NCBI GenBank assembly: GCA_043800255.1
Contig: JAZDNF010000001.1
Location: forward strand, 32,001 to 96,000
From: Candidatus Altiarchaeota archaeon
GTDB taxonomy: Archaea; Altiarchaeota; Altiarchaeia; IMC4; SCGC-AAA252-I15
Length of the DNA stretch: 64,000 bases
Reading direction: 5' to 3'
In this document: piece after piece, positions 37,968-52,275 of the stretch
Numbering within the stretch: position 1 is the stretch's first letter
Layout of the letters: each line of letters starts with the position of its first letter
Notes under the pieces: generated by a model
Told to the model about the DNA's origin: nothing
Seen by the model: the letters and a program-made list of their open reading frames with translations, nothing else
The model's database searches: none
Translations under genes and position numbers: made by a program

Positions 37968-38702
37968 CTAATCTTTTATCCTCCACTCGTTGGAGTAGAC
38001 ATTGAACTTGGAATTGCGGGCGAATCCTGCAAGCGTCACACCCAACTTATCGCCCAAAATCAGCGCCCTGGAGAGCGGGGCGGTGTTCGAAACAACGAGG
38101 GGGATTCCAACCCTAACTGCCTTTGTGACTATCCCGGAAGATAGCCTGCCTGTGAAGAGCAGGAACTTGTCGCCAAGCGCTACGCTCTCCTGGAGAGCCC
38201 ATCCGACGACCTTGTCCAAGGCGTTGTGCCGTCCGACATCCTCAAAAAAAGAGAGACGCTTACCCTCTGCGGACATGAGGAAGGCGGCGTGCGTCCCGCC
38301 TGTCGCAGACCACTCCAACTCCCTGTCAGAAAAATTGTCAAGCGACTTCAATATGACCTTTCTGCTGAACCTTCCATCCCTGTCAAGAGGCTCAGGCTCG
38401 CGCTGCATGATGCCAGAGCATCCTGAGCTTCTCAGCTCTGTGAGAAGCTCAAGCCGGTCCTTACCGCTTACTTCAACTTTCACGGCGCTGCCATCAACCT
38501 TAACGTCCCTGATGTCCTCGTAATCGCAAACTCCTTCGGAGACGAGGAAGCCGACCGCCAGCTTGTCCAAGTGGCGGGGCAGAGCGAAGATGGAAATGAA
38601 CTTCAGACCGTTCACATACACTGTGACAAGCTCCTCGTCGGAGACCGCATCATCCCTCAACTCCTCCCTGTCGGAGTAGAAGACCCTTACCCTTCTGTTC
38701 AT
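37968..38702 (-). CDS. fdhD: Formate dehydrogenase accessory sulfurtransferase FdhD
   Basis: AVGFLVSEG, SSGC, TGGTHAA, EDVGRHNALDK, TGRLS. Confidence 0.93.
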   Translation of the reverse strand: MNRRVRVFYSDREELRDDAVSDEELVTVYVNGLKFISIFALPRHLDKLAVGFLVSEGVCDYEDIRDVKVDGSAVKVEVSGKDRLELLTELRSSGCSGIMQREPEPLDRDGRFSRKVILKSLDNFSDRELEWSATGGTHAAFLMSAEGKRLSFFEDVGRHNALDKVVGWALQESVALGDKFLLFTGRLSSGIVTKAVRVGIPLVVSNTAPLSRALILGDKLGVTLAGFARNSKFNVYSNEWRIKD

Positions 38703-39145
38703 GCCTTTTCCCTAGTCTGAGAATAGCCCCGTATTATCTCCTCAACGTCAGGCACTTCCTCTTTTGTCGGTTCGACTGTGATGGTCATGCCCTTGAAGTT
38801 CGGCGACCCTGTCTGCAGCGTTTCCGCCTCCACGATTGAGTTGATCCAGGGGCCTTTGGGGACGAATACAATGCCTCTGGGAGTCTCGCCAGCCTTAGCG
38901 TACAATGTAATGCTGGACACCCCTGAGGTGAGCTTTACCCTGCCGTCGTCTTGGACGTTCAAGGTTGCCATGTCCTCAGGATTCATGTAGCACGTTCCAG
39001 CAGCCGTCCTGTAGTCGTCCTTGTGCGTCATCTTCCTGCCGCTGCGCATTATCACACCCTGCTTGGAATCTGAGCCGGTGTCCAATATGACCTTCAGCTT
39101 CACCCTGAGGTAATCTCTCACGCTTTTGAAACCTTCCGGTATCAT
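38699..39145 (-). CDS. fwdD: Formylmethanofuran dehydrogenase subunit D
   Basis: MNPEDM, VFVPKGPWIN, GSPNFKG; start could be an internal GTG. Confidence 0.88.
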   Translation of the reverse strand: MIPEGFKSVRDYLRVKLKVILDTGSDSKQGVIMRSGRKMTHKDDYRTAAGTCYMNPEDMATLNVQDDGRVKLTSGVSSITLYAKAGETPRGIVFVPKGPWINSIVEAETLQTGSPNFKGMTITVEPTKEEVPDVEEIIRGYSQTREKA

Positions 39146-40443
39146 CCTCTCACCTTCCTAATCTCCTGGTAGATTTTTGAGAGCGTCTCCTCGTCTGAGG
39201 ACGTGAACTCGAACGGAGACTTCAGGAACTTTCTGGCTGTCAACGGCACGTTGTCCATCCTATAGTATGTGGCGTCAGATTCGAAGCCGCTTATAACTCC
39301 CGGTATGACCAGATCTGCCATATACGTTGTCGGCGTCGGAGCCACGTCTATCGATATCAGCGGTATCTTTGCCATGTGCTCCACGCACTTCCGGGGGAAG
39401 TGGGCGACAGGGTCTGCTGATATGCTTAGCATGGCGTCGATCTCCCCCTCTCTCAAGAGGTCGATTATGGAAGTCTCCCCAGGGTTATAGCGCGGGTAGC
39501 CTCTGAAGAAGTCAACAGCAAACGGGTAGCCTGTCCTCCATGTCAGGACTTCGTTGAATCCTGCGACATTATAATGGCCTCTCATCGGTATCACAGAGAA
39601 CCTGGTGTGGTCGTTCAAAGTCTTCACAAGTTCGAGCAGATTTTCGATGTTATAGGCTTTCATGCCTGAGTGGGTGAGGCCGAGGCCTATGAATGCGACG
39701 CCATACTGGCATTTTTTCAGCATTTCAGCGAGCTTTTCAACGTCTCTCAGCTTGAGGCCAGCGACCTCGCTTACGTTCAGCGTCTCTCCATTGATGATCG
39801 CCCTTAGGGCTGAGATGAGCTCGAAATCGCTGTTAGGTTCTATCTGGTAGAAGAAGTTCGCCAGCTTTGCTGTAGTGCTCTTCCTCGTGTCTATCACTAT
39901 GATCTTCCTGTCCCTCCTGCCCTGCTCCCTGTACATTCCCCTCGGGTATGTTCCAAAGCGTGACATGTGCCTCGGGTGGGACTCCATCGGGTTTGAGCCC
40001 CAGTACACTATCAAGTCAGAGTAGTTCATCACCATACCCAGGGTGCAGGTCGGAAGCCCGCTCATCTGCTCCCCCAGTATCGTCGGCCCGTGGCAGTGGG
40101 ATGACTGGCTGTCGATGTAGCCTCTTATGTGCTCTGCGATGTCGACTCCGACTTTTATGGCCTCGCACGAGTTCTCGCTCCACCCATACAGGAGGGGGCG
40201 CTCGGCTTCGGTGAGCATCCTGGCAGCCTCCTTTACTGCCTCCTTCCAGCCGATCTCCTCTGCCTTTCCGTTGACTTTGAGTGTCGGCTTCATGATGCGT
40301 TCCATTCTGCCGATTTCCTCGAATTTAGACTTGCCGACAAGGCAGGCGCCGTTGACTTTGACGATTCTGCCGTCTTCCAACTCTACGATGATGTCGTCGC
40401 ATCCGCATCCGCATACCGGGCATGTTATGTCCTTATATATCAT
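39142..40443 (-). CDS. fwdB: Formylmethanofuran dehydrogenase subunit B (Mo/W-pterin)
   Basis: CPVCGCGCDD, HCHGP (Cys ligand, not Sec), HPRHMSR, MRGHYNV, YRMD. Confidence 0.95.
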   Translation of the reverse strand: MIYKDITCPVCGCGCDDIIVELEDGRIVKVNGACLVGKSKFEEIGRMERIMKPTLKVNGKAEEIGWKEAVKEAARMLTEAERPLLYGWSENSCEAIKVGVDIAEHIRGYIDSQSSHCHGPTILGEQMSGLPTCTLGMVMNYSDLIVYWGSNPMESHPRHMSRFGTYPRGMYREQGRRDRKIIVIDTRKSTTAKLANFFYQIEPNSDFELISALRAIINGETLNVSEVAGLKLRDVEKLAEMLKKCQYGVAFIGLGLTHSGMKAYNIENLLELVKTLNDHTRFSVIPMRGHYNVAGFNEVLTWRTGYPFAVDFFRGYPRYNPGETSIIDLLREGEIDAMLSISADPVAHFPRKCVEHMAKIPLISIDVAPTPTTYMADLVIPGVISGFESDATYYRMDNVPLTARKFLKSPFEFTSSDEETLSKIYQEIRKVRG

Positions 40444-41186
40444 CTTCTGATCCTGACCTCCCCCTTCCCTTTGAAGCTTACGTCGCCATCGTATAAGATG
40501 TACTGCCCGTCTTCGCCCTTCCTTTTGAGGTAGAATGGAGCGTCCATTGGCGTTTCTACTGTAATCGATCCCTTCTTCATAGCATATCCCAGCGGGCTTC
40601 CGCACTCTCTGGCTTTGATGGTTCCCCCACTCATGTAACTTCCTGTGAATTTCTCGACTCTGCCCTCTACTGTTATCTCCCCCCCTATAAGTCCTTTCCC
40701 GACGTCCAATCCGACGTTGCCTCCCACTTTGATGGTTCCGCCGCTCATTCCCGAGTCCTCTCCTCTAACAGCGCAGCCGACATAGCATTCCACGCTCCCC
40801 TTAACTTCTATGGTGCCTCCTCTCATGCCAGTCCCAACCCAGCCTCCAGCGTCCTCTTCGACTATTATGCTGCCGCCTACCATGCCCTCGCCGAGGTGCA
40901 GGCCTGCGCCGCCTTTGACCAGTATCTCGCCTGCCTTCATATCCTCCCCGATTCTTTTAACCTTTGAGAAGTCTCCCTCCAGCAGGAGCTTCTGGTCTTC
41001 AGGCTTTTTGGCAATCTCACCCTCGATTTGGAAGACCTCGCCCAACGTTTTCTTCCTGTTGCCTGCGTAGACTTCAAGCTCCAGTATCTGCTTCATGGTC
41101 TTGCCTGCGAAGGACTCAGGCTTCAAAGCCTCCGCCTCGATCGGATAGTCCAATTTTTCCTTCAGCTTAATTGTTAACGTCTTCAT
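40440..41186 (-). CDS. fwdC: Formylmethanofuran dehydrogenase subunit C
   Basis: GxxMxGG beta-helix repeats; VKRIG. Confidence 0.93.
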   Translation of the reverse strand: MKTLTIKLKEKLDYPIEAEALKPESFAGKTMKQILELEVYAGNRKKTLGEVFQIEGEIAKKPEDQKLLLEGDFSKVKRIGEDMKAGEILVKGGAGLHLGEGMVGGSIIVEEDAGGWVGTGMRGGTIEVKGSVECYVGCAVRGEDSGMSGGTIKVGGNVGLDVGKGLIGGEITVEGRVEKFTGSYMSGGTIKARECGSPLGYAMKKGSITVETPMDAPFYLKRKGEDGQYILYDGDVSFKGKGEVRIRR

Positions 41187-42765
41187 CTCTCACCCTATAA
41201 TTTGAAAGCCCAACGCTGTAGTATCTCCTGAAGAAGGTGCTGAGTTCATCGTCCAGTTCTTTGTTGTCAACTTTCCTGTCAGTGTGCTTTGTAACGCCCT
41301 TGAACGATTTTGCCACAACGCCGTCCTTGACGACAAGTTCGCCCTTTATCACTGAGTAATCTGCCTTGGTGAAGCCCTCCTCTATCCCGTTGCTTAAGTC
41401 ATAGACCGCGAAGCCGGCTTCCGCTCCCTCCCTTATCCCGTCATACTTGAGCCCCAGTATCCTGGCCGGGGTGCTCCTAGTGACTTTGGCTATCTCATAG
41501 AGCGTGTACTCCCTGTCCAGGCTCAGGAGCGTTGTCTTCTTCTCAAAGGCGGGGTTCAGGGTTTTCGCGTACTCTTCCCTCCCTTTCCTGCTCATCAGCC
41601 ACTCGATTATCCTGGGATACCTTATGTAGGGCCCAGCGTTTGGGTGGTCTGTTGACAGGCAGACCCTGTCAAGGTCCTCGGCCAACAGCATCAGCTCCAG
41701 TCCAACAGCCCATTGGGTGGAGTTGACTGGGTTCTTGCTGGAGTAGTGTATTGGGACTATGCCTGCGCCGTGCTCCAGCTCGACGTCGCCTGAAGTCCAC
41801 TTCTCGTGTATCAGCTTCGAAAGGTATTGTTCGAAGGGGCTGTCAGCGGTGAGCGTCGTAGTGTAGTCCAGTGTTATCTGGCCGACGTCGAACGTTATCC
41901 TCTTGTCCTTATTGACGTGCTTCATTATCTCATCAGTCTTGGAGCAGAATTCCTTCCACGAGTCTCCGCCGTAGCTGTTGAACTGCAGGTGGGTCACGTG
42001 CATTCTCTTCTCTGTCAGGCTCATCTCCTCGAGCGCTGACATATAATTCCCATAATAGCCCATCCCGTTCAAGTGTATGTGTATCGGGTGGGGGAGCTCT
42101 AGCTCGTTGTTCGCCCTCTCCAGGTTTCTTATTATGTCCGATGGTGTGATGTCAAGTTTCGGTATCATTGAGTCAGGTTTAGTCTTCTTCTGGTTCCAAA
42201 CCCATGAGAGGAACGCTCCAGGAGCTACGAGCTTTATCCCGTACGTTTTCGTCCTGTCAAGCATCCATGCGACATAATCGGTTAACTTCTCCGTCTCACC
42301 CCTCCTTATGAAATCAGCCACCAGGTAGTTGTTGCCAAGCATCAGGAGCCCGACCTTGTCCATGAGCGGTATGTCGTTCACCTCGTGATGGTAGTGTTTC
42401 ACCTTGAGGGGCGAGACGTCCGGGACGCAGAGTGTGCTATAACCCATAAGCGCGTACTGGTATCCTGTGAGGAACGTTGAGGGGCATGAGAACCCGGAAC
42501 CTGAACGGAGGCTCCCTCTGGACTCCAAGACAACGCTCTTGTCTTCAGGCCGCATCATCCTCGCGGCGTTCACAGCCGAGCCTGCTACGTGGGTGTGAAT
42601 GTCAACGCCTGAAGGCATGAGCACCTTGCCCTTCGCGTCTATGACCTCAGGCTTCCCCTTCGCCTTTCCAACGATCCTGCCATTCTCGACGAGGACGCTC
42701 ATCACCTCCCCGTCTATCTTGTTGACTGGGTCGTAGACTTTTGCGTTTCTGAACTCTAAGGCCAT
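41167..42765 (-). CDS. fwdA: Formylmethanofuran dehydrogenase subunit A (amidohydrolase)
   Basis: VYDPVN, DIHTH, HIH, THLQF, QWAVGLE, TDHPNAGP. Confidence 0.95.
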   Translation of the reverse strand: MALEFRNAKVYDPVNKIDGEVMSVLVENGRIVGKAKGKPEVIDAKGKVLMPSGVDIHTHVAGSAVNAARMMRPEDKSVVLESRGSLRSGSGFSCPSTFLTGYQYALMGYSTLCVPDVSPLKVKHYHHEVNDIPLMDKVGLLMLGNNYLVADFIRRGETEKLTDYVAWMLDRTKTYGIKLVAPGAFLSWVWNQKKTKPDSMIPKLDITPSDIIRNLERANNELELPHPIHIHLNGMGYYGNYMSALEEMSLTEKRMHVTHLQFNSYGGDSWKEFCSKTDEIMKHVNKDKRITFDVGQITLDYTTTLTADSPFEQYLSKLIHEKWTSGDVELEHGAGIVPIHYSSKNPVNSTQWAVGLELMLLAEDLDRVCLSTDHPNAGPYIRYPRIIEWLMSRKGREEYAKTLNPAFEKKTTLLSLDREYTLYEIAKVTRSTPARILGLKYDGIREGAEAGFAVYDLSNGIEEGFTKADYSVIKGELVVKDGVVAKSFKGVTKHTDRKVDNKELDDELSTFFRRYYSVGLSNYRVRDEDVNN

Positions 42766-42766
42766 C

Positions 42767-43219
42767 TTATGCGAAATCCAGTGCATCATAGGGGCAGGAG
42801 TCAGCGCATATCCTGCACTTCTTGTCATCGCCGAAGCGCCTGCACTTTTTCAGGTTCACTATCCTGACTTTGCCCTTGGCGACCCTCAACACGACGTCCT
42901 CGCTCTCAGGGTCTTTGCCTCCTCCGGCGCTCGGGTCATGCATCGCTGACACGGGGCACGCTATCACGCAGTTCCCGCAGCCAGTGCACCTGTCCTCGTT
43001 TATTATTATGCCAGTCTCCTCAGACTTAGCCCTGCCTGAGAGCATGGTCTCAAGCTCTTTCTTATGCTTTGAGAAGCTCTCTTGGAGTATCGGAGTGCAT
43101 TCGACAATCTTCGCATCTCCCTTGAGCAGCTTTGACGCGAATCCCATGCACGTGTCTACTCCGCATTTCCCGCAGTTCAGGCCGGGCAGCTTTTTGTAGA
43201 CTTCCATCAGGTTTACCAT
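42767..43219 (-). CDS. fwdG: FwdG-like ferredoxin with N-terminal FeS domain
   Basis: LPGLNCGKCG..TC; CTGCGNCVIACPV; CRICADSCP. Confidence 0.78.
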   Translation of the reverse strand: MVNLMEVYKKLPGLNCGKCGVDTCMGFASKLLKGDAKIVECTPILQESFSKHKKELETMLSGRAKSEETGIIINEDRCTGCGNCVIACPVSAMHDPSAGGGKDPESEDVVLRVAKGKVRIVNLKKCRRFGDDKKCRICADSCPYDALDFA

Positions 43220-43223
43220 CCTC

Positions 43224-44588
43224 TTACCTCCATTTCTCCTTCACGAACTTCCCTATCTCGGACGAGTCTCTCGGGCCTATGAGGACTTCCCATCCTGTCT
43301 CATCTTCTATTGTTCCTCTGATCTGCGAGGCGAACATCGGCAGTATAAGCTTCCTGTGCTTTACCTTATCTGCAAGCTTGCTGTTTTCGATGGCCTCCCT
43401 TATCTTCGACCCTGACAGGTCTCCTGTCGCGATTGCAGTGTCGACCGCAAAACCTTTGGTTCCTACAACCAGAAGGTAGCTGTCTATGCTGCTCTTCTGC
43501 AGGTCTCCAGCCACTGTGAAATACGTCAGGGAGAAGTTGGTTGTCACAAAGACAGGCGAATTCTCGCCCGGCTTTCCTATCTCATACAGCTTAGCATCCA
43601 CCTCAGGTTCCGTCCTCGGGTCAGTGTATATGTTCTGCCTCAGCGTCAGCATGTGAATCAGCGACCACGGCTCTATGGAGTGGACCACTATCAGGGATGC
43701 GAACCTTGACAGCAGAGCGCATGCCAGGACAGTCTCATAGTATGCTGCCATTATTCTGTCCTTTGTGCCGGTCCAGGCTATTGCAGGCACTCCCATAAGA
43801 GGATAGCCGAGTTCCCTGACGTTCTTTACAGCCGACTTCCTGAGCATCGTGAAACCTTCAATGGTGTTCTTGAGGCCTGAGCCTACAGGCATCGTCCCAG
43901 GGTCTAAGACTACGTTATCGTGGCCCAGATTGGAAGCTATGCTGCCGAGCATGTCGAAATCGTTGGAATAGACTGCCATGGGCGCGTTGTACCTCTCTGA
44001 GAGGGCGTTAACCTTCTCCCAGTTTTTCTCGTTGGCTGCGTAAATCAGAGGCCGCCTGCCATCGAGCTTTTTGAGGCCTGCCTCCAGCGCTTTCGGGTCG
44101 AAGGAGCACAATACCATCGGACCGTTAAAGCTCTTAGCGACTCTCTCGACCGTTTTAGCGTATTTTTCAGGATTTTTGGATGCGCATCTCACTGCTATGG
44201 CATCCAGTCTAAGTTTCTCCCCAATCCTCTCCAGCACGAAGTTCTTGACAAAGTTGATTCTGCCGTCTATCTCGGCGTCGGGCATGGTATCGCTGACGTC
44301 GACCGCTATCCTGCAGGGGTTGAAGAACTTCAGCTCGTGCCTGTACATGACCTCCTCGCCCCCCAATGTCATCCCCTCAGGATGGCCGAATCTGACCTCC
44401 TTGACAGGGGGAGTGACCATGTCCATCAGCTTCCCGAGGTTCTCCTTGACTATGTACGGGCACTCGCCCAGCTTCCGCCCCCTGTCTATGAGCTTTATGG
44501 CGAAGCTCATGCACGTGTTCTCCCCGCAGTCCTTGCAGTTCGTCTTCGGCAGGAGCTTGTAGAGCTCCATTGCGGTTGTTCTGGGCAT
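43224..44588 (-). CDS. cdhE: ACDS corrinoid Fe-S protein large (gamma) subunit
   Basis: LPKTNCKDCG..TCMSFA, LRQNIYTDP, TTNFSLTYF, GPRDSS. Confidence 0.95.
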   Translation of the reverse strand: MPRTTAMELYKLLPKTNCKDCGENTCMSFAIKLIDRGRKLGECPYIVKENLGKLMDMVTPPVKEVRFGHPEGMTLGGEEVMYRHELKFFNPCRIAVDVSDTMPDAEIDGRINFVKNFVLERIGEKLRLDAIAVRCASKNPEKYAKTVERVAKSFNGPMVLCSFDPKALEAGLKKLDGRRPLIYAANEKNWEKVNALSERYNAPMAVYSNDFDMLGSIASNLGHDNVVLDPGTMPVGSGLKNTIEGFTMLRKSAVKNVRELGYPLMGVPAIAWTGTKDRIMAAYYETVLACALLSRFASLIVVHSIEPWSLIHMLTLRQNIYTDPRTEPEVDAKLYEIGKPGENSPVFVTTNFSLTYFTVAGDLQKSSIDSYLLVVGTKGFAVDTAIATGDLSGSKIREAIENSKLADKVKHRKLILPMFASQIRGTIEDETGWEVLIGPRDSSEIGKFVKEKWR

Positions 44589-45742
44589 TATCCCATCACC
44601 ACCCAATCCTCGTAATCTAGTTCAGGCTTTTTCTTCTCGTCCCAGAAGAGGTTTATGACCTCCTTCACGGATGCTATCGCAGCAGGGTGGAGCATCATGT
44701 ACAAATCAGTCCCAGAGAAGAGCGCAATGATCCCTGTTATCGTCTCCCAGAGGGGGCCTCTCAGCTCCTTGGGGCCCAATGCTGGGTCTTTTATCCACGC
44801 CTCTCTGGCGCTCCACGCGTTCGAGACTCCTGCCATTATCGGCATGGCGAGGTCCTTGTCGCCTTTCAGGGCAGACAGCCTTATCCTCTCCATCGTGCTG
44901 ATTGAGTACTCTATCCCATAGCCGAGGGAGGCCATGTTCGGGTCCATTATTATCCTGTCTGCAGGAAGGCCTCCCTTCATGATTTTCTTGTTCATCTGTT
45001 TCATCCCTGGGACGTCCATCGAAACCAGTGACAGTATCAGATGGTTGTGCTCTACCGCTGCCTTTACTACTGTCTCGTATCCCATGCCTGGCGAGACTGA
45101 GGATATGAGTACCCTCTCCCCTGACGCCGCCTCGGCGGCCTTTGTCAGGACTTCAGCGTCCTTCTCATAGTTTCCTGAGCCTGATATTATTATCGGGACT
45201 TTCACAGCCTGTAGGACGTCTTCAACGGTTTTAACCGCATCCTTCGCAGGCCTGTTCCACAGGTTCGGGTCTGTGCTCACCAAATGAAGCGTGACCATGT
45301 CTGCGCCGAAGTCTTTGACCTGTTTTTTCGCCCACTCCGCCGGATCTTTCATCGCATCGCCAAAATTCTCCTTGACGAATCCTGGCAGCCTGAAGGGCAC
45401 GTCGAAGACGTCGTGGCTTATTATCGGCTTGTTGGGCATCTTCCCCTCGAAGAAGTAAAGTGGTGGTGCGGTCTCCCCGCCTATCCTGAGCGTCTTACCC
45501 CTTGTGCCTCCTTCAGAGCTTGTTGCTCCCAGCGTGACCTCATGTACCCTGTTAGCGTACGATTCTGCAGGAATCTGGAACCTGAACTTCCTCTCAACCT
45601 GTTTAGCCTTCTCGACTGCCTTCCTCACGCTCTGCATTATGGCGTGCGGCATCAGCCCAAGCTCTATCTCCTCCGCCTCGAGGTTGAAGTCCTCTATCTC
45701 AAGCTCCTCAATGCCTTTCAGTATGTCCTCTATGTCTATCAT
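44588..45742 (-). CDS. cdhD: ACDS corrinoid Fe-S protein small (delta) subunit
   Basis: DPAEWAK, HLVSTDP, LGYGIEY, NAWSAREAW, MMLHP. Confidence 0.95.
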   Translation of the reverse strand: MIDIEDILKGIEELEIEDFNLEAEEIELGLMPHAIMQSVRKAVEKAKQVERKFRFQIPAESYANRVHEVTLGATSSEGGTRGKTLRIGGETAPPLYFFEGKMPNKPIISHDVFDVPFRLPGFVKENFGDAMKDPAEWAKKQVKDFGADMVTLHLVSTDPNLWNRPAKDAVKTVEDVLQAVKVPIIISGSGNYEKDAEVLTKAAEAASGERVLISSVSPGMGYETVVKAAVEHNHLILSLVSMDVPGMKQMNKKIMKGGLPADRIIMDPNMASLGYGIEYSISTMERIRLSALKGDKDLAMPIMAGVSNAWSAREAWIKDPALGPKELRGPLWETITGIIALFSGTDLYMMLHPAAIASVKEVINLFWDEKKKPELDYEDWVVMG

Positions 45743-46485
45743 GTCAGCCCCCCTGCAAAGGATGAGACGCTATTGTAAGCTTCCGAGTCTGCCGGCAGAT
45801 TTATCAGAGGCTTTCCTTCGAGGTCGTATTCTGCCACAAGCGTGTCCTCAGGTATCAGCCCTATGACGTCTATGCCAACTTCCTTCGCCTCCTTGAGCAT
45901 GAGTTCCCTGTTCCCGCTCTTCACCCTGTTCAGCACAAGGAACATGCTGTCGAACTCTATCCCCAGCTCTTTGGCAAGATCTTTTATCCTTCTAGCGGTG
46001 AGGAAACCCTTCTTTGACGGGTCTGTCACTATCAGCATGGTGTTGACGTTCTGCGTCGTCCTTCTGGACATGTGCTCCAGGCCTGCTTCGGCGTCTATGA
46101 TGCAGTAGTCGTAAGCCTGCGTGGTCTCGTCTATTATGTTCCTCAGCAGGTGGTTTATGGCGCAGTAGCATCCCGGCCCTTCAGGCCTGCCCATGACGAT
46201 GAGGTCGAATCCGTCCTCCTCCACTGTTATCTCGAAGACCTTGGAGGACAGGTGTTTCTCCTTCTCAACTCCCGGGGGGAGTTTCTCGCTGAGGAGGTCT
46301 TCCCTTATGTCGCCTACTGTCTTCTCGAATTTCACGTTCAAGGATTCGGCCAGGTTGGAGTCTGGGTCTGCGTCTATGGCAAGCAGACTTCCTTTGCCGC
46401 TCTCCTTTATCGCTCTCACCAATAAAGCGGAGAGCAGCGTCTTCCCGACCCCTCCCTTGCCTGATACTGCTATTATCTTTACCAT
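45739..46485 (-). CDS. cooC: Nickel-insertion ATPase CooC/AcsF
   Basis: GKGGVGKT, DADP, GPGCYC, EAGLEHMSR. Confidence 0.93.
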   Translation of the reverse strand: MVKIIAVSGKGGVGKTLLSALLVRAIKESGKGSLLAIDADPDSNLAESLNVKFEKTVGDIREDLLSEKLPPGVEKEKHLSSKVFEITVEEDGFDLIVMGRPEGPGCYCAINHLLRNIIDETTQAYDYCIIDAEAGLEHMSRRTTQNVNTMLIVTDPSKKGFLTARRIKDLAKELGIEFDSMFLVLNRVKSGNRELMLKEAKEVGIDVIGLIPEDTLVAEYDLEGKPLINLPADSEAYNSVSSFAGGLT

Positions 46486-47873
46486 TATCTTTTCTTGTCG
46501 ACTTTTTTGATTATCACCTTTTCAGCGTGTATTTTGGCGTTCTTCAGTATTATCCTGAAGCCGCCTGCAGCCGGAAGCGCCAGCGTGGGGGCTGATATCA
46601 CCTCCTGGCCCTGGGGGAAGTCCAAGGTCTCACCAGCCTTCTCCTTTGGAGCCTCCTCTATGTCCTCCTTTTGTCTGCTCATCAGGGGGTGTTTTTTCTC
46701 CTTCAGGAAGGTTTTCAGCTCCTCCATGCCTTTGACTTCGTTCTCTGTCGGTATCTTCTCGAACAACTCCTTTGGGATCGCATCAGCCATCCTCTCCTTC
46801 ACGTTGGACGGCATCCAGGCTATCCTGTTCCATCCGCCGTCTGCTGAGAGGAACTTGTCAGAGTGCATCCACTGCAGGCCGAAGCCGAGGAAGCCTTCGG
46901 TCTGGATCCCTCCTCCGGACTGGCTTGCCATGGTCGAAAACTTCAGGCCGTTGACGGTCTCCCCCTTGAAGTTCCTGTCCAGCACTCCTATGCCATCCAC
47001 CTCTGGAATGTAGAATGCTATCGCCTCGAAGCATCCGCATGATGTGTGGGGCTTGTCGAACATGCTGTACATCTGGAACCTCTCGTTGGCTCCGTTCGAC
47101 CCCTCTTTCACGGCATCGTTCACGCCGGAGTATTCTCCCTTCTCCTCATCGATTGTTTCCCCTTTCACTACCTTATAGATGGGCCCGTCTGGTTCGACCC
47201 TTGCCGCCGCGCTGGCGTCTATCCAGCTTATGGCGCCGCAGAGTGACGTCCTCTGGGGGCTTATCATGCATATGTGATTGGGTGCGAAGGACTGGCATAG
47301 CGTGCATGCGTAGAAGTCTTCCACGTCCTTGTCCTTCATGCCTCTTACTCTCACGTCTCTGCTCTCGTAGACTTTTAGGGCTTTATTGTAGAATTCTTCC
47401 ACTTTTTTCTCGTCCGTTATGAACGTTATCTGCATCTTCTGGATGAATGGCAGCTCCTTCTTGAACAGGTCCATCAAGGCCCCTCCTATGTGCTTGAAGG
47501 TGAGGCCTTTCTTCTTCGCCTCCTTGCTCACCCTGATCCAGATGTCATACCTCTGGTTCAGGTGCATCACGCCTTGAATGTAATTCATGAAATCGTGGTT
47601 CCTCCTCTCTATCACAGGCTCTAAGTCGCTGTCAATCTCCTTGCCGTAGACTTCAAGGTATATCCCAAGCGGCTGTTTGCTGCCTTCTTCGAAGTCGCCT
47701 ATGTCCTTCCCGACGACCTCGACTTTTCCGTCCTCAATCTCCTTTTCAGGCTTAACCTGGGTGAGTTCCGCCTTGTACTTCACTTTCGGGCCTCCGAACT
47801 CGACCTGCGTGTCAGGCCCCCTGATACGCTCCCCCTCGTATATTATCCCAACGTCCACTGGAATCTTAATCAT
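46485..47873 (-). CDS. cdhC: ACDS beta subunit (acetyl-CoA synthase)
   Basis: GERIR, HLNQR, CTLCQSFAP, LCGA, PHTSCGCFE. Confidence 0.96.
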   Translation of the reverse strand: MIKIPVDVGIIYEGERIRGPDTQVEFGGPKVKYKAELTQVKPEKEIEDGKVEVVGKDIGDFEEGSKQPLGIYLEVYGKEIDSDLEPVIERRNHDFMNYIQGVMHLNQRYDIWIRVSKEAKKKGLTFKHIGGALMDLFKKELPFIQKMQITFITDEKKVEEFYNKALKVYESRDVRVRGMKDKDVEDFYACTLCQSFAPNHICMISPQRTSLCGAISWIDASAAARVEPDGPIYKVVKGETIDEEKGEYSGVNDAVKEGSNGANERFQMYSMFDKPHTSCGCFEAIAFYIPEVDGIGVLDRNFKGETVNGLKFSTMASQSGGGIQTEGFLGFGLQWMHSDKFLSADGGWNRIAWMPSNVKERMADAIPKELFEKIPTENEVKGMEELKTFLKEKKHPLMSRQKEDIEEAPKEKAGETLDFPQGQEVISAPTLALPAAGGFRIILKNAKIHAEKVIIKKVDKKR

Positions 47874-50416
47874 CCTTTCGCACCTCCTGAGAGTCTTTCT
47901 AATAGTGTCGGGTCTGGTATCCTTTCGACCGGCGTCCAGCCCTGCTTTTTCAATACCTTTAGTATCTTGTCTTTGATTGTGGTCGGTATGTCCTTCTCGG
48001 TCCTAACGAGCCTGTGCAGGTCGTCCGGGACCCTGTTGTAATACTTCTCATGGAGGTTTATGTAGTGGGCAAGCTTTATCTGCCTGCCTTTGACGCCGTC
48101 CGACGCCCTCATGCACAGTTTCGGGATCAGCGTCATGACCTCCTCCTTAGTCTCTGCAACGTATGAGAGATGCTCCGGAACAGGCCCCACGTCGTATTTG
48201 CCGGGGCCTCTCGTATCGAAGACTGTCCAGTCTGTTTTGTCGTCGCTTCTCAGTTCCTTCCTGTATTTTTTGCCGGATGGCCCCCATATCACCGGGATGC
48301 CCAGTCTCATGACGCCGGCGCCTATGGAAACGGCTTTGGGCGACATGGTGCCCCAGACGAGGCCCACCGCCCCGATCCTGTTGTGGACGTAGTCTGCTAT
48401 CTCCTCGAAGTTGCCTCTAATCTTTCTCCTGCCGAAGAGCGAGGCAACCTTTATCGCGGCCCCTGTTATGTGGGAGTTGCTGACGCATGACCCAACGTTG
48501 ACCAGGTTGCCGGCTTCGAACTTGCCGCCGTATTTCTCATACAGGTTGTTTGTCCCGCTGTAGTCTGTCGCGAGCGCCATCGCAGAGCAGCCTGAGGTTG
48601 CCACTATGAAGTTTCTTTTCAGGAATTCTTCCATCATCTCGCCAAGCTCTCTGCCGCCGTTCGGCCAGAGCGAGCATCCTACAGGGGCTATGATGCCCGG
48701 TATTTCGCCGAACACCAGGGGGGCGCCGACTTCCCTTATCTCTATGTCCTGTATCGGCCCCCTTCCCGGGTTGATTTTTGCCTTGTCATTCATGAACTTG
48801 CTCTTGTATATGTCGGAGAATATCGAGACTATCGGTATCCTCTGCGGGCAGTATGATTCGCATCTCCCGCAGAAGACGCACTTGTGCAGGTAAGCCATCA
48901 GCTCCTCCTCGCTGAGCGGTTTCTCGCTTTTTCTGTCTGAGCCCCTCTTCTTTATGTCTTCGATAGCGTCTTTTGAGAGTGAATAGTACATCTCCTTCCC
49001 GCTTTTTGTTTTTCCCAGCCCTTTTATCTCGTCCAGCATCCTGTAGATGTACTGTCTTGACACTCCAAGTTTGTCTGAGAGTTCTGTCGGGGTGTAGGCG
49101 TTCTCCTTCAGGAGCACGTTCATCGCAGCCTTCAATGTGCTGCCTCCTTCCTCGGTGGTGACGTCCACATCGTGCAGTTTGAGGCATCTCATCCGTATGC
49201 TCCTTATCATCCCTCTGACGTCGTTGCCGACGGGGCATGCTTGGACGCATAGGCCGCATGCGGTGCACTTCTGGCTTTCCTCTGCGTAGTCGATTTTCAC
49301 TGCCTTTTTGCTCTTGTGAATCCTGATGGCGGTCTTTGCCGCGATTTCCCCGGCCTTCTCAAGGTCTGGGATGTAGGCGCCTTTTATCTGCCTGCTTGCC
49401 AGTTTCTCAACCACTGTGTCAGGGTTCTCCTTAGAAAGGTCTGGCAGGCCTCCGACATTGTTGTCTGATGCTGTTATAACCGGTATTCCAAGTTTTGAGG
49501 CGTTCTCTATGGTGTCCACTCTCACGCACTGTTCGTCTGTCACTATGACGTCCGCTATCCCGGACCTGACGTACGGCAGCTGGTATGAAAGCTGCCCTAT
49601 CACCTTTGTTTTCCTGTTGTATCTCGCCAGGTCCAGTGCAGTGCAGCATATTCCTGCGACTTCCACGTCAATGTTGTTCTCCGTAACGTAGTCTATGATC
49701 TCGACTCCTGTCACCACGTTGTGGCCTATGCAGAGTATTACCGGCTTCTTGTTGTCTGCGGTGCTGAATCCTATCTCTGCGTGCTCTACCTCCTGCTCCC
49801 CCCTGGGCAGGTTCAACGCGACAATCTGGGTTATGTCCGCTATTTCCATGCCAAGGTGGTCTAACATCCCGGCGTGCAGCGTTTTTGAGCTGAAGTCGAG
49901 TTCGCTTGATTCCTGTCCCATGTGCAGGGACGACGTCAGCTGAGTGAGCTGTTCTTCTACATAGCTTAATGGCTTCTCCAGGTCTCCCAGAGTCTTCGGC
50001 CTTATGCCGTATACGAGTTGCGTCCACGGTGCCTGCATCTCAGAGCCTGCCGCCGGGTCAAGTTTCAGGTCTCTGCCGTATTTTTTTGTCAGGCTGTCTA
50101 GGCCGTGTCTGGCGTGTGCCGTGTGCGCCGCCGCGCCGATTACTGCCAGCAGGAGGTTTTCCCTTGCCATCTGCGTGTTCAGGTTGATTCCGCACGCTCC
50201 TCGCCTGTTGGCGTTGAGGTCGCATGGTCCGTAGGCACAGAGGAAGCATTGCTTGAGGTAGGTGTGGTACTTTGGCTTATACCTCCTGAGGAGTTTCTCG
50301 TCCCATCCTCTGAGGTCTGTGACCTTTGGTTTCATGTTGGGGCCAATTGGCTCCCAGTCATCATCTTCCAAAACTTCCCCTATTGTTATCCTTACGTTTT
50401 CTCCGTCAATCTTCAT
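47870..50416 (-). CDS. cdhA: ACDS alpha subunit (Ni-CO dehydrogenase) with ~90-aa internal wHTH-like insertion
   Basis: CFLCAYGPC..GACG, IGHN, GICCT, DEQC, VGCS, SGCS, GSCVSN ligands; insertion between CTACGLCVQACP and CVFCGRCESYCP; start ATG 50416 or TTG 50425. Confidence 0.95.
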   Translation of the reverse strand: MKIDGENVRITIGEVLEDDDWEPIGPNMKPKVTDLRGWDEKLLRRYKPKYHTYLKQCFLCAYGPCDLNANRRGACGINLNTQMARENLLLAVIGAAAHTAHARHGLDSLTKKYGRDLKLDPAAGSEMQAPWTQLVYGIRPKTLGDLEKPLSYVEEQLTQLTSSLHMGQESSELDFSSKTLHAGMLDHLGMEIADITQIVALNLPRGEQEVEHAEIGFSTADNKKPVILCIGHNVVTGVEIIDYVTENNIDVEVAGICCTALDLARYNRKTKVIGQLSYQLPYVRSGIADVIVTDEQCVRVDTIENASKLGIPVITASDNNVGGLPDLSKENPDTVVEKLASRQIKGAYIPDLEKAGEIAAKTAIRIHKSKKAVKIDYAEESQKCTACGLCVQACPVGNDVRGMIRSIRMRCLKLHDVDVTTEEGGSTLKAAMNVLLKENAYTPTELSDKLGVSRQYIYRMLDEIKGLGKTKSGKEMYYSLSKDAIEDIKKRGSDRKSEKPLSEEELMAYLHKCVFCGRCESYCPQRIPIVSIFSDIYKSKFMNDKAKINPGRGPIQDIEIREVGAPLVFGEIPGIIAPVGCSLWPNGGRELGEMMEEFLKRNFIVATSGCSAMALATDYSGTNNLYEKYGGKFEAGNLVNVGSCVSNSHITGAAIKVASLFGRRKIRGNFEEIADYVHNRIGAVGLVWGTMSPKAVSIGAGVMRLGIPVIWGPSGKKYRKELRSDDKTDWTVFDTRGPGKYDVGPVPEHLSYVAETKEEVMTLIPKLCMRASDGVKGRQIKLAHYINLHEKYYNRVPDDLHRLVRTEKDIPTTIKDKILKVLKKQGWTPVERIPDPTLLERLSGGAKG

Positions 50417-50591
50417 CTTTCTCAACTTCTGTCGTGTGGTTCATGAAGTCTATCTTCTTTATCCTGCAGTTTTCCAGCTCTGTTTTTTTACCGAGAATGT
50501 CTGAGATTATCAGTTTCCTGTCAGATATTGTTATCCTGGCAGCTTCTTTTACTATCTCTTCCCCGTCTAATACCACCTTTGATTCGCACAT
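50406..50591 (-). CDS. cooT: CooT-family nickel-binding protein
   Basis: N-terminal MCES, DILG, IKKIDFMNH; first gene of the CODH operon. Confidence 0.85.
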   Translation of the reverse strand: MCESKVVLDGEEIVKEAARITISDRKLIISDILGKKTELENCRIKKIDFMNHTTEVEKDED

Positions 50592-50595
50592 CCTA

Positions 50596-50710
50596 GTTTA
50601 CATATATCGGCATCATCATTTAAAAATGAAAATTATTGGTTTACACGTCTTTAAAAAGCGCAATATCTAGCTCTATTATCATAAATGGCATGAACCACTG
50701 GTTTACATAT
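50596..50710. promoter_or_regulatory. Promoter region of the cdh-fwd operon with three GTTTACA(Y) repeats and TATA-like boxes
   Basis: GTTTACATAT 50596-50605, GTTTACAC 50639-50646, GTTTACATAT 50701-50710; minus-strand TTTTTAAA at about 50619-50626 and 50650-50657. Confidence 0.55.
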
Positions 50711-50760
50711 TAAACCTACCCGCAGAACTTTTTTATATTATAAGACAGTACGCTCCCGGC

Positions 50761-52275
50761 TTATCCGAGAGAGTAGAGGTTGCCCTCTTTTTTGATGTTG
50801 ATACCCAGCTGTTGCCTCTCATAGGATGACAGGGTGTTGTAGACCTTCCCCAAAGAAACTTTGTTGGAGAGTATCGCGCTCATGATTTCACCCTTTGCCT
50901 TTCTACTGAACGCATTATCTGAGATGTCACCTTCAACTTTGACGCCAAGGATTGTGAGCCTCTCAACGAGCGGCTCTTCCAGGGCCTTTTCATCAGTCTC
51001 AGTCTGCTCTGGCATGGAAACGGGAGGTCTCACATCGTCCTGCGCTATCCTGAACTCAGCGTCCATCCTATCTGGCGTCTTTCCCGGCCTCCCCCTGGTT
51101 CTACTCTTTTCAGCAGGCCTTCCCTCTAAAGTTTTTGGAGCGTCTACCGGCGCTGGAATCTTATTAGCAGGAATCGGTTCCGGAGGAGTGCCCTCTTTCC
51201 TCTCATTTTGGACTCTAACCATGAGCTGTTCGAAGACCTTCGACAGGTCCTCCCTGCCGTAGCCTGCGAATAGGCTGATGCACTGCTGGAAAAAATTCTC
51301 CCCCTTCGCTGGTTCCGCCTGGTTTCCGAAGCGTTCGAACATGTGGGCTGCGCTATCATAGTGTTTCTTCTGATTGTAAGCGTGTCCCGCCCCTATAAAA
51401 TCCAGAGCCTTAACCTTCTTGAGTATGCTCTCTTTCGTGGTGACGACGTCGTCCTTGAGGTTCAACCTAGTCAGGATCACATTCTCCCCGTAGCCTCTTG
51501 CGAACGAGTCCAGCATCATGTTGTTGAGGTACGCCCAGGTGTCATAGTTGTTGACGAACTTCTTCTGCGCCATATTATCCAACATCACAGTAATGGCGTC
51601 CCTTGCGACCCTGTTCATCTCCTCAGGCTTTCCGAGGTGCACCTCCAAGTCCGTCCCCATTACCGTTCCATCCTTCCTCTGGAGTATGTGATCAACGGCA
51701 TAGTCTTTCCCCTTGCCTATGTCACCTACCACAGCGCCCTTGTCCTTGAAGGCTTTCAGGAACCTGCCTACTGCCTCCATCTGTTCTTCAACCTTCTTGT
51801 AGCTCATCGACTCTACAGCACCGTAGATTGAATCCTCAACTTTTTCTCCCCTCTCCTCTACCAAGTAAGTCCGGCGTGTTTTCCCGCTTGAGATCACAGC
51901 AGCAACAGGGATTGCAACAGGCAACCCAGTGTGGAGTAAAATAAGGTTGTTGTTTGCCTCCTCTTCAGGCGGAACGTGGGGGCCGGTTTTGAGGTGGGAC
52001 GTCTTGTAGACGAAGTCGTCCGAGTATTTCACAGGATCCCTCCTCCCAGACGGCTGGAACTCTCCAATCATTTTAACATGATCTTCCAGGCCCTGAGTTA
52101 ACATCATAAGAGGGAGGCCTGATTTAGCGTCAAATTTCAACTCATAGTCTCCACTGACGGACTGCTTGAACGTCTCAACCAGCGCGCTCCTCCTCTCAAC
52201 CACACTAAGGTCTCTTATCCCAAAGAGGTCAGGCGCGTTCCCGCCTCCTGCGGCACCCTGCCTGCTTTTTATCAT
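50761..52275 (-). CDS. Hypothetical protein with divergent Kdo/WaaP/Bud32-like kinase fold and Pro-rich linker
   Basis: VYK...EEE..N..L...GLPVAIPVA...YLVEE...VGRFL..FKDKG..VGDI...HIL...GTDLE. Confidence 0.55.
   Translation of the reverse strand: MIKSRQGAAGGGNAPDLFGIRDLSVVERRSALVETFKQSVSGDYELKFDAKSGLPLMMLTQGLEDHVKMIGEFQPSGRRDPVKYSDDFVYKTSHLKTGPHVPPEEEANNNLILLHTGLPVAIPVAAVISSGKTRRTYLVEERGEKVEDSIYGAVESMSYKKVEEQMEAVGRFLKAFKDKGAVVGDIGKGKDYAVDHILQRKDGTVMGTDLEVHLGKPEEMNRVARDAITVMLDNMAQKKFVNNYDTWAYLNNMMLDSFARGYGENVILTRLNLKDDVVTTKESILKKVKALDFIGAGHAYNQKKHYDSAAHMFERFGNQAEPAKGENFFQQCISLFAGYGREDLSKVFEQLMVRVQNERKEGTPPEPIPANKIPAPVDAPKTLEGRPAEKSRTRGRPGKTPDRMDAEFRIAQDDVRPPVSMPEQTETDEKALEEPLVERLTILGVKVEGDISDNAFSRKAKGEIMSAILSNKVSLGKVYNTLSSYERQQLGINIKKEGNLYSLG

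Follow-up and report, generated by a model that had tools for sequence, protein, structure and literature searches.

CO dehydrogenase/acetyl-CoA synthase (CODH/ACS) is among the oldest carbon-fixing enzymes, and its regulation in uncultured autotrophs such as Altiarchaeota is at issue here. CO-responsive regulators of coo/cdh operons include CooA, RcoM, and Methanosarcina MreA, each a protein distinct from the enzyme that carries a haem or another sensor domain. Enzymes that feed back on transcription through a built-in DNA-binding domain, known as trigger enzymes, include BirA, with an N-terminal winged helix-turn-helix (wHTH), and PutA, with a ribbon-helix-helix. The gene analyzed here, cdhA, encodes the alpha subunit of CODH/ACS and was found in a stretch of 64,000 nucleotides (hereafter the window) from Candidatus Altiarchaeota archaeon (GCA_043800255.1, contig JAZDNF010000001.1, positions 32,001 to 96,000 of the forward strand). 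Its product has full-length homology to archaeal CdhA (clade A Ni-CODH; structures 3CF4, 8RIU, and 9C0Q) and shares the E/F 4-Cys motifs and the CODH motifs with it, and cdhC, cdhD, and cdhE are present in both archaeal cdhA operons and the window operon. Unlike the solved CdhA proteins, the window CdhA has approximately 90 extra residues between the E/F motifs, forming a wHTH. Like BirA and PutA, it thus combines a competent enzyme with a transcription-factor-type fold, and a candidate operator is located at the promoter of its own pathway. Unlike the terminal domains of BirA and PutA, the wHTH of CdhA is nested inside the iron-sulfur (FeS) domain, and its DNA binding is predicted only. The control of a CODH operon, exerted elsewhere by separate sensor proteins, would here be served by a putative DNA-binding domain within the enzyme itself.

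The initial annotation of this DNA knew of no CdhA with a DNA-binding domain, and our searches of the literature on CdhA/CO dehydrogenase and Altiarchaeota likewise found no description of a wHTH domain in CdhA or of CODH as a trigger enzyme. The available text of the Altiarchaeales comparative-genomics paper (PMC4975002) contains no mention of a CdhA wHTH. A wHTH nested in CdhA gives a known enzyme a domain architecture that is new. The gene and the parts of its product that bear on this architecture are listed below, with residue numbers of motifs, core, and recognition helix counted in the 851-aa open reading frame (ORF) from TTG.

47870..50416, minus strand: cdhA, CO dehydrogenase alpha subunit of CODH/ACS, 848 aa from the ATG at 50416
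49232..49267, minus strand: first 4-Cys motif of the FeS (E/F-cluster) domain, CTACGLCVQACP, residues 387-398; Fer4 family matches at 366-400
48881..49231, minus strand: segment between both 4-Cys motifs, exactly 117 residues
48929..49165, minus strand: wHTH core, 79 aa, residues 421-499, composed of H1, a short strand, H2, H3, a beta-hairpin wing, and H4
49034..49063, minus strand: predicted recognition helix VSRQYIYRML, residues 455-464, corresponding to helix 59-68 of the 117-aa model
48845..48880, minus strand: second 4-Cys motif, CVFCGRCESYCP, residues 516-527

The cdhA ORF is open at 47870..50425 (minus strand; 851 aa counted from TTG 50425), and the ATG at 50416 (MKIDGENV) is the likely start, as in the near-identical protein P0002. 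CdhA matches the Prismane family (Pfam: PF03063) with E 9.4e-55 and the solved alpha subunits 8riu_A, 9c0q_A, and 3cf4_A with E 6.1e-210 to 7.9e-183. The match to 8riu_A (E 6.1e-210) falls into two stretches, CdhA residues 10-402 and 507-831. All CODH motifs are kept (CIGHN, CCTA, DEQC, VGC, SGCSA, and GSCV), and a pattern search for the C-cluster motifs CIGHN, CCTA, DEQC, SGCSA, and GSCV recovered five of five. The Cys/His columns of the C-cluster motifs, which we take to hold the cluster ligands, and the Cys of VGC (C581) are invariant in two CdhA alignments. Only the two canonical CxxCxxCxxxCP motifs, for clusters E and F, were found. An in-frame ORF with retained catalytic cluster motifs, as described in the initial annotation, was therefore confirmed. 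The window CdhA is almost certainly a catalytically intact Ni-CODH alpha subunit, the FeS domain of which carries a nested wHTH of approximately 75-90 residues between two flexible linkers.

The distance between the 4-Cys motifs had been given as approximately 117 residues (48885-49230); it is exactly 117 (48881-49231), and the peptide quoted for it is present in the CdhA translation. The first ~22 and last ~15 residues of this segment belong to the ferredoxin-like FeS domain, and the middle is the insert. Alignments with solved chains break at this place, query residues 402 and 507 corresponding to 417 and 431 of 8riu_A and query residues 409 and 511 to 436 and 446 of 9c0q_A. Therefore, the window CdhA is ~90 residues longer at the insert, and the motifs are closer in the solved CdhA proteins, as had been stated for methanogen CdhA. 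At this site, the linker in genome G035 has 45 residues, versus 117 in the window CdhA. The GC content of the insert is similar to that of the remainder of cdhA. That the insert is an artefact of assembly or of reading frame is hardly conceivable and can be considered refuted for practical purposes: the same in-frame insert was found in 7 species-level genomes and in 7 protein clusters of several sources, and an independent contig of 3,752 nt, assembled from other runs, covers 48600-50666; it differs from the window by 115 substitutions, and cdhA is free of indels in it. The sole gap in this contig is 1 nt at 50635, outside the gene.

The initial annotation had read the insert as a wHTH of the ArsR/TrmB type, and this reading agrees with the family profiles and with the modeled topology. 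In Pfam searches, HTH_11 matched the 79-aa core with 26.3 bits (cut-off 25) and the whole CdhA with 21.7 bits, which is below threshold. TrmB and HTH_11 each matched all 7 homologues (best E 3.7e-8 and 5.2e-7, respectively), HTH_5/ArsR matched 5 of the 7, and so did Rrf2; HTH_24, MarR, and TFIIE_alpha were also among the matching winged-helix families. A precomputed TrmB match is carried by 4 of the 7 database homologues. Structures were predicted by AlphaFold2 for the 117 residues with 7 homologues and for the whole protein (848 aa) with 17 sequences. For the insert alone, the mean predicted local distance difference test score (pLDDT) was 70.4, with core blocks at 79-84, and the model contains helix 30-42, a two-residue strand 45-46, helices 48-55 and 59-68, a hairpin 73-77/80-84, and helix 87-99. 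The whole-protein model (mean pLDDT 72.6) has the same elements at 422-490, bracketed by stretches with pLDDT <50 at 411-417 and 489-498. The topology H1-(b1)-H2-H3-b2-b3 of a wHTH is present, with pLDDT of about 66-84 there, and the low-confidence linkers around it suggest a tethered domain, judging from the models. Fold searches gave weak scores, but the top matches are wHTH proteins. Among the matches listed, the top rows of the Foldseek search were all wHTH regulators (CadC, ZitR, SmtB, CzrA, and PagR), and in the VIA fold search, which is independent of Foldseek, the best match was the DNA-binding domain of pSK1 Par (Z 5.8, root-mean-square deviation 2.4 over 53 residues), followed by RacA and then by a MerR-type regulator. 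We read the insert core as a genuine wHTH of the kind found in transcription factors (ArsR/TrmB/HTH_11-like). The ArsR/SmtB, TrmB, and MarR regulators have the same topology and the same GK-x-x-YYSL wing strand; unlike ArsR-type proteins, the CdhA insert lacks evident dimerisation helices and does not stand alone. A profile match also connects it to the Rrf2 family of Fe-S-dependent wHTH regulators, although any coupling of the flanking clusters to DNA binding is conjectural.

The distribution of the insert was analyzed in 61 Altiarchaeota genomes, with CdhA counted at E <= 1e-30. CdhA was found in 21 of these genomes and the wHTH insert in 10 of the 21, so that conservation within a clade, proposed earlier as a check, was observed. 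The CdhA-bearing genomes have the following forms at the insertion site.

wHTH only, 7 genomes: G000, G008, G015, G017, G019, G009, and G023
wHTH and two extra 4-Cys motifs, 3 genomes, Alti-1-like: G042, G043, and G044
Two extra 4-Cys motifs only, 7 genomes: G021, G026, G031, G032, G036, G048, and G050
Short linker, no insert, 3 genomes: G035, G039, and G041
Not classified: G052, with a partial CdhA

Insertions at this site have been described before. According to the main text of Inoue et al. 2019 (PMC6344411), in which the term "helix-turn-helix" is absent, Ni-CODHs of structural group A-5 have an insertion of two further Cys x4 motifs, located between those for the E and F clusters. The insertion site of group A-5 is identical to that of the wHTH, and this form was found in sister Altiarchaeota families. 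The group A-5 feature is absent from the window CdhA, which has the wHTH instead; in the Alti-1-like CdhA (G042-G044) both modules are combined in tandem. In a CdhA tree of 30 rows, built with the insert masked (the near-duplicates P0002-P0004, P0006, and P0007 and the partial G015 and G052 were left out), the nine wHTH-only rows all fell into one 12-row clade (Shimodaira-Hasegawa-like approximate likelihood ratio test, SH-aLRT, 100). The same clade contains three insert-free rows, G039 and the paralogues G050b and G032b. Altogether, the insert was lost with CdhA kept in G039, G041, P0071, and the paralogues G050b and G032b. The simplest reading of these sequences is an old insert with repeated loss, modules being exchanged at one permissive site.

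The wHTH cores compared, 16 in total and from three deep lineages, share several positions that are invariant in 16 of 16: helix 3 begins with SRQYxY, the wing contains K..GK, the wing strand has a Tyr, and H1 and H2 have one Leu each. These cores include those of paralogues devoid of every C-cluster motif checked. The conserved recognition helix looked for in the initial annotation is thus present. The ratio of nonsynonymous to synonymous substitution rates (dN/dS) is 0.02-0.14 for the wHTH core (5 of 10 pairs with estimable dS) and 0.04-0.12 for the 200-residue flanks, and by this comparison the insert is under purifying selection. Because of the conserved positions, the dN/dS values, and the independent spanning contig, the insert is regarded as real, old, and selected.

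A close stand-alone homologue of the wHTH was not found by a profile search of the 61 phylum genomes. The strong matches (E <= 3.8e-9) were confined to CdhA ORFs, and the other 9 matches were weak, with E 8.2e-5 to 7.4e-4. A stand-alone or split form of the domain was rejected, the strong phylum matches being inside CdhA ORFs only. A profile search of 1.84 billion representatives yielded 48 matches at E <= 0.001, one of which is a CdhA (P0013). The top four are proteins with several matched stretches, and the two inspected, P0011 and P0012, are tandem HTH repeats; the remaining matched proteins range in length from 63 to about 5,000 aa. The best stand-alone sequence relatives, P0014, P0016, and P0017, are small ArsR- or HTH_11-like proteins. 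A scan of metagenome contigs revealed no further lineages: apart from three unrelated loci, it gave only two near-copies of known types (L044 and L045).

In the three Alti-1-like genomes (G042, G043, and G044), the insert was found both in the catalytic CdhA (972-1084 aa) and in a paralogue without the catalytic motifs. This second paralogue has 873-910 aa (P0013, P0057, and P0059; loci L036, L037, and L038 of G044, G042, and G043, respectively). The wHTH is retained in it, as are the N-terminal Cys motifs, the E/F motifs, and the two extra 4-Cys motifs, but six of the six C-cluster motifs checked have been lost (CIGHN, CCTA, DEQC, VGC, SGCSA, and GSCV). We regard the paralogue as a candidate pseudo-enzyme that may serve as a sensor or regulator; in G044, its gene is located directly upstream of the catalytic cdhA copy. 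Two of the Alti-1-like catalytic proteins, P0062 and P0064 (1052-1067 aa), have ~100 more residues between the first E/F motif and the wHTH, in a block beginning around AQFLFCW... A second divergent CdhA paralogue of 767-774 aa was also found in family f5 (L042 and L043, from G050 and G032); it has one intact 4-Cys motif only and no CIGHN.

The region 50592-50760, upstream of the cooT-like gene that precedes cdhA, had been named in the initial annotation as a target for binding assays. It holds a box pair that is unique in the genome and conserved in relatives, arranged around a TATA-like box.

50406..50591, minus strand: cooT-like gene, 61 aa, beginning MCESK; match to CooT (Pfam: PF10133) with 42.4 bits (cut-off 27), E 8.8e-11
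50596..50602, minus strand: box s2, TGTAAAC, covering the expected transcription start, with its end 4 nt upstream of the cooT ATG
50618..50626, minus strand: TATA-like element TTTTTAAAT between s1 and s2, assigned by sequence and position only
50639..50645, minus strand: box s1, TGTAAAC, 43 nt upstream of s2 in the same orientation
50701..50707, minus strand: box s0, TGTAAAC, the third box in this orientation, 62 nt upstream of s1

The 64-kb window contains 10 TGTAAAC boxes versus 4.0 expected, a number reached by 2 of 100 shuffles, and 3 of the 10 are upstream of cooT. In the 1.75-Mb genome, only two co-oriented TGTMAACYA pairs within 110 nt were found, both at the cdh promoter. When promoters are aligned, the two boxes and the T/A-rich block between them line up in 6 of 6, with a box spacing of 42-43 nt; the boxes of genus g9 are TGTCAAC. 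The pair pattern has exactly one match, at the cdh promoter, in each of the 7 wHTH-only genomes, 6 of the 7 box-bearing genomes having served for its derivation (G015 was not used). It was found in 4 of the 54 other genomes, in none of them with a TATA-like centre, and the reversed-pattern control gave 18 matches over the 61 genomes. In G039, which lies inside the wHTH clade and has no insert, the boxes are absent too. Box s0 lies beyond 50666, where the contig of a related strain stops matching the window. The related-strain contigs X1, X2, and X4, from three runs, have the same loose end at 50666; they share s1 and s2 but neither s0 nor the upstream ORF. By inspection, the boxes do not fit the SurR-type motif, which we take to be GTTn3AAC, and SurR was set aside as a candidate. 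In family f5, in loci with the extra-ferredoxin form (L016, L018, and L019), a tandem repeat ATAATGAT(N2-3)ATAATGAT is located just upstream of cdhA and may be the operator of another regulator.

A regulatory role in DNA binding is possible for the CdhA wHTH, though somewhat short of probable. In the proposed mechanism, the domain would bind DNA through helix 3 (VSRQYIYRML) and the Lys-rich wing, and CdhA would act as a trigger enzyme feeding back on transcription. The target would be the two co-oriented TGTAAAC boxes 43 nt apart around the TATA-like element; as the proximal box covers the expected start, occupancy would most simply mean repression. Autoregulation through these boxes at the cooT-cdhA-cdhC-cooC-cdhD-cdhE promoter, the foremost candidate target, is a more doubtful proposition than DNA binding as such. 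One CdhA dimer would present two tethered wHTH domains, able to hold both boxes. In the available text of a preprint (10.64898/2026.07.07.736967), the CODH tetramer is about 100 A across, and two flexibly tethered domains of one dimer could reach sites 43 bp apart. Binding might further be gated by the Fe-S, Ni, or complex-assembly state, which is speculation. The full version of this scheme, a bifunctional CdhA whose two wHTHs clamp the boxes astride the TATA element in a manner dependent on assembly of the E/F clusters or on incorporation into CODH/ACS, is unlikely. Were it true, synthesis of CODH/ACS and of the Ni chaperone CooT would be matched to Fe-S/Ni maturation, and the dead wHTH-bearing paralogues of Alti-1-like genomes would be enzyme-derived sensor-regulators. 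If DNA binding is true at all, CdhA would be the first example of a CODH that regulates itself, and metal-cluster maturation would be coupled to gene expression in a new way.

Several observations weigh against regulation by the wHTH. The very high abundance that is normal for CODH/ACS would be unusual in a protein regulating one promoter by sequence-specific binding. The structural evidence for the fold is modest: the Foldseek search of the 117-aa model against the PDB gave no match at E <= 0.001 (best E 7.5e-3), and in the VIA search just 1 of 48,161 chains reached Z >= 5, statistics that we attribute to the small size of the domain. Dimeric wHTH regulators usually have palindromic sites, whereas the boxes are direct repeats. 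Their co-occurrence with the insert is confounded by common descent, and the pair pattern was largely derived from the genomes in which it was then counted. The three Alti-1-like genomes, which have the same SRQYIY helix in two CdhA paralogues each, have no TGTMAAC box within 600 nt upstream of either paralogue and 0-2 boxes per locus of 9.6-15.6 kb; a genome-wide search for the box pair found it in 0 of 4 genomes. In genus g9, the box has C instead of A at position 4, while helix 3 is unchanged. The boxes may instead belong to a separate regulator. Since the insert was lost several times with CdhA kept, it is dispensable for catalysis. The same losses could mean that the insert is left over from an earlier fusion, which a surface loop tolerates and which no longer has a specific function. 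This is very improbable in view of dN/dS values comparable to those of the catalytic flanks, motifs invariant across class-level divergence, and retention in 10 of the 21 CdhA-bearing genomes.

The alternative already raised in the initial annotation, a docking module, is about equally likely as regulatory DNA binding; taken by itself, it is plausible but doubtful. The wHTH would then be a protein-docking or structural module at the electron port, without DNA binding, that recruits or positions a redox partner, such as ferredoxin or a further subunit, or stabilises the FeS domain where the epsilon subunit is lacking. In the available text of PMC11493965 on the alpha2-epsilon2-zeta2 enzyme, the distal cluster of the FeS domain is the point of electron exchange, and the zeta ferredoxin domain docks at the alpha/epsilon junction. 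The insertion lies in this FeS domain, and therefore at the electron port of the enzyme. In sister lineages, this very site is occupied by two extra 4-Cys motifs, and Alti-1-like proteins carry both modules in tandem; accordingly, the site is used for electron-transfer accessories. The CdhB/epsilon subunit (Pfam: PF02552), which characterises the methanogen alpha2-epsilon2 complex and not the CdhA family as such, was found neither in the genome of the window (93% complete) nor in any of the 41 genomes of its order, whereas control genomes were matched; judging from gene content, archaea of this order appear to run an epsilon-less CODH/ACS, and in the window system cooT is the first gene of the operon. 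The invariant helix 3 may equally mark a protein interface, as it is kept in genomes without boxes, and the VIA matches include winged helices that do not bind DNA, in methyltransferases (4a6e and 7ux6) and ESCRT-II (3cuq). On the other hand, the domain still matches transcription-factor families, with E down to 3.7e-8, whereas winged helices recruited for protein contacts usually drift beyond transcription-factor profiles. The polar S-R-Q start of helix 3 and the basic wing are kept, the low-confidence linkers suggest a tethered rather than a packed domain, and no partner was identified. If docking is true, the wHTH marks the electron port of an epsilon-less CODH, which would help to explain the swaps of modules (wHTH, extra ferredoxin clusters, or both) at one site. 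Improbable, finally, is binding of nucleic acid elsewhere or non-specifically, tethering CODH/ACS to the nucleoid or to RNA, with the boxes belonging to a separate regulator. The fold and its conservation apply equally here, the helix is retained in the box-less Alti-1-like genomes, and the A/C change in the box is not mirrored in helix 3; yet no other candidate motif cluster was found, and the box pair is single-copy per genome and located at the promoter of the very gene that encodes the domain.

The operon has the order cooT-cdhA-cdhC-cooC-cdhD-cdhE, with the stop of cooT overlapping the start of cdhA. The 61-aa ORF was not listed among the ORFs of the window and is easily missed at an ORF cut-off of 80 aa; by its family match, its product is the nickel chaperone CooT, and the same small ORF precedes cdhA in L023, L024, and L026. 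The other genes next to cdhA are as follows.

43224..47873, minus strand: remainder of the operon after cdhA, with cdhC, a cooC-like gene, and two cdhD-family genes
46485-47873, minus strand: cdhC
45739-46485, minus strand: cooC-like ATPase gene
44588-45742, minus strand: cdhD-family gene
43224-44606, minus strand: cdhD-family gene with an N-terminal FeS domain, gamma-like
50761-52275, minus strand: 504-aa ORF directly upstream of the cdh promoter, without a Pfam match

No conserved regulator gene was found beside the operon, as the gene upstream of cooT differs between lineages. The 504-aa ORF, the C-terminus of which (…GKVYNTLSSYERQQLGINIKKEGNLYSLG) is loosely wHTH-like by eye, was rejected as a conserved neighbouring regulator, since it is not kept upstream of cooT-cdhA in relatives. 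A search of 50300-50900 against Rfam for an RNA element in the leader gave no matches at E <= 1. Downstream of the cdh genes, at 37968-43219 (minus strand), genes were found for a 150-aa FeS/ferredoxin protein, for formylmethanofuran-dehydrogenase-like proteins (amidohydrolase, GXGXG, and molybdopterin subunits), and for FdhD. These genes fit a methanofuran-type methyl branch of the Wood-Ljungdahl pathway, located beside its carbonyl branch.

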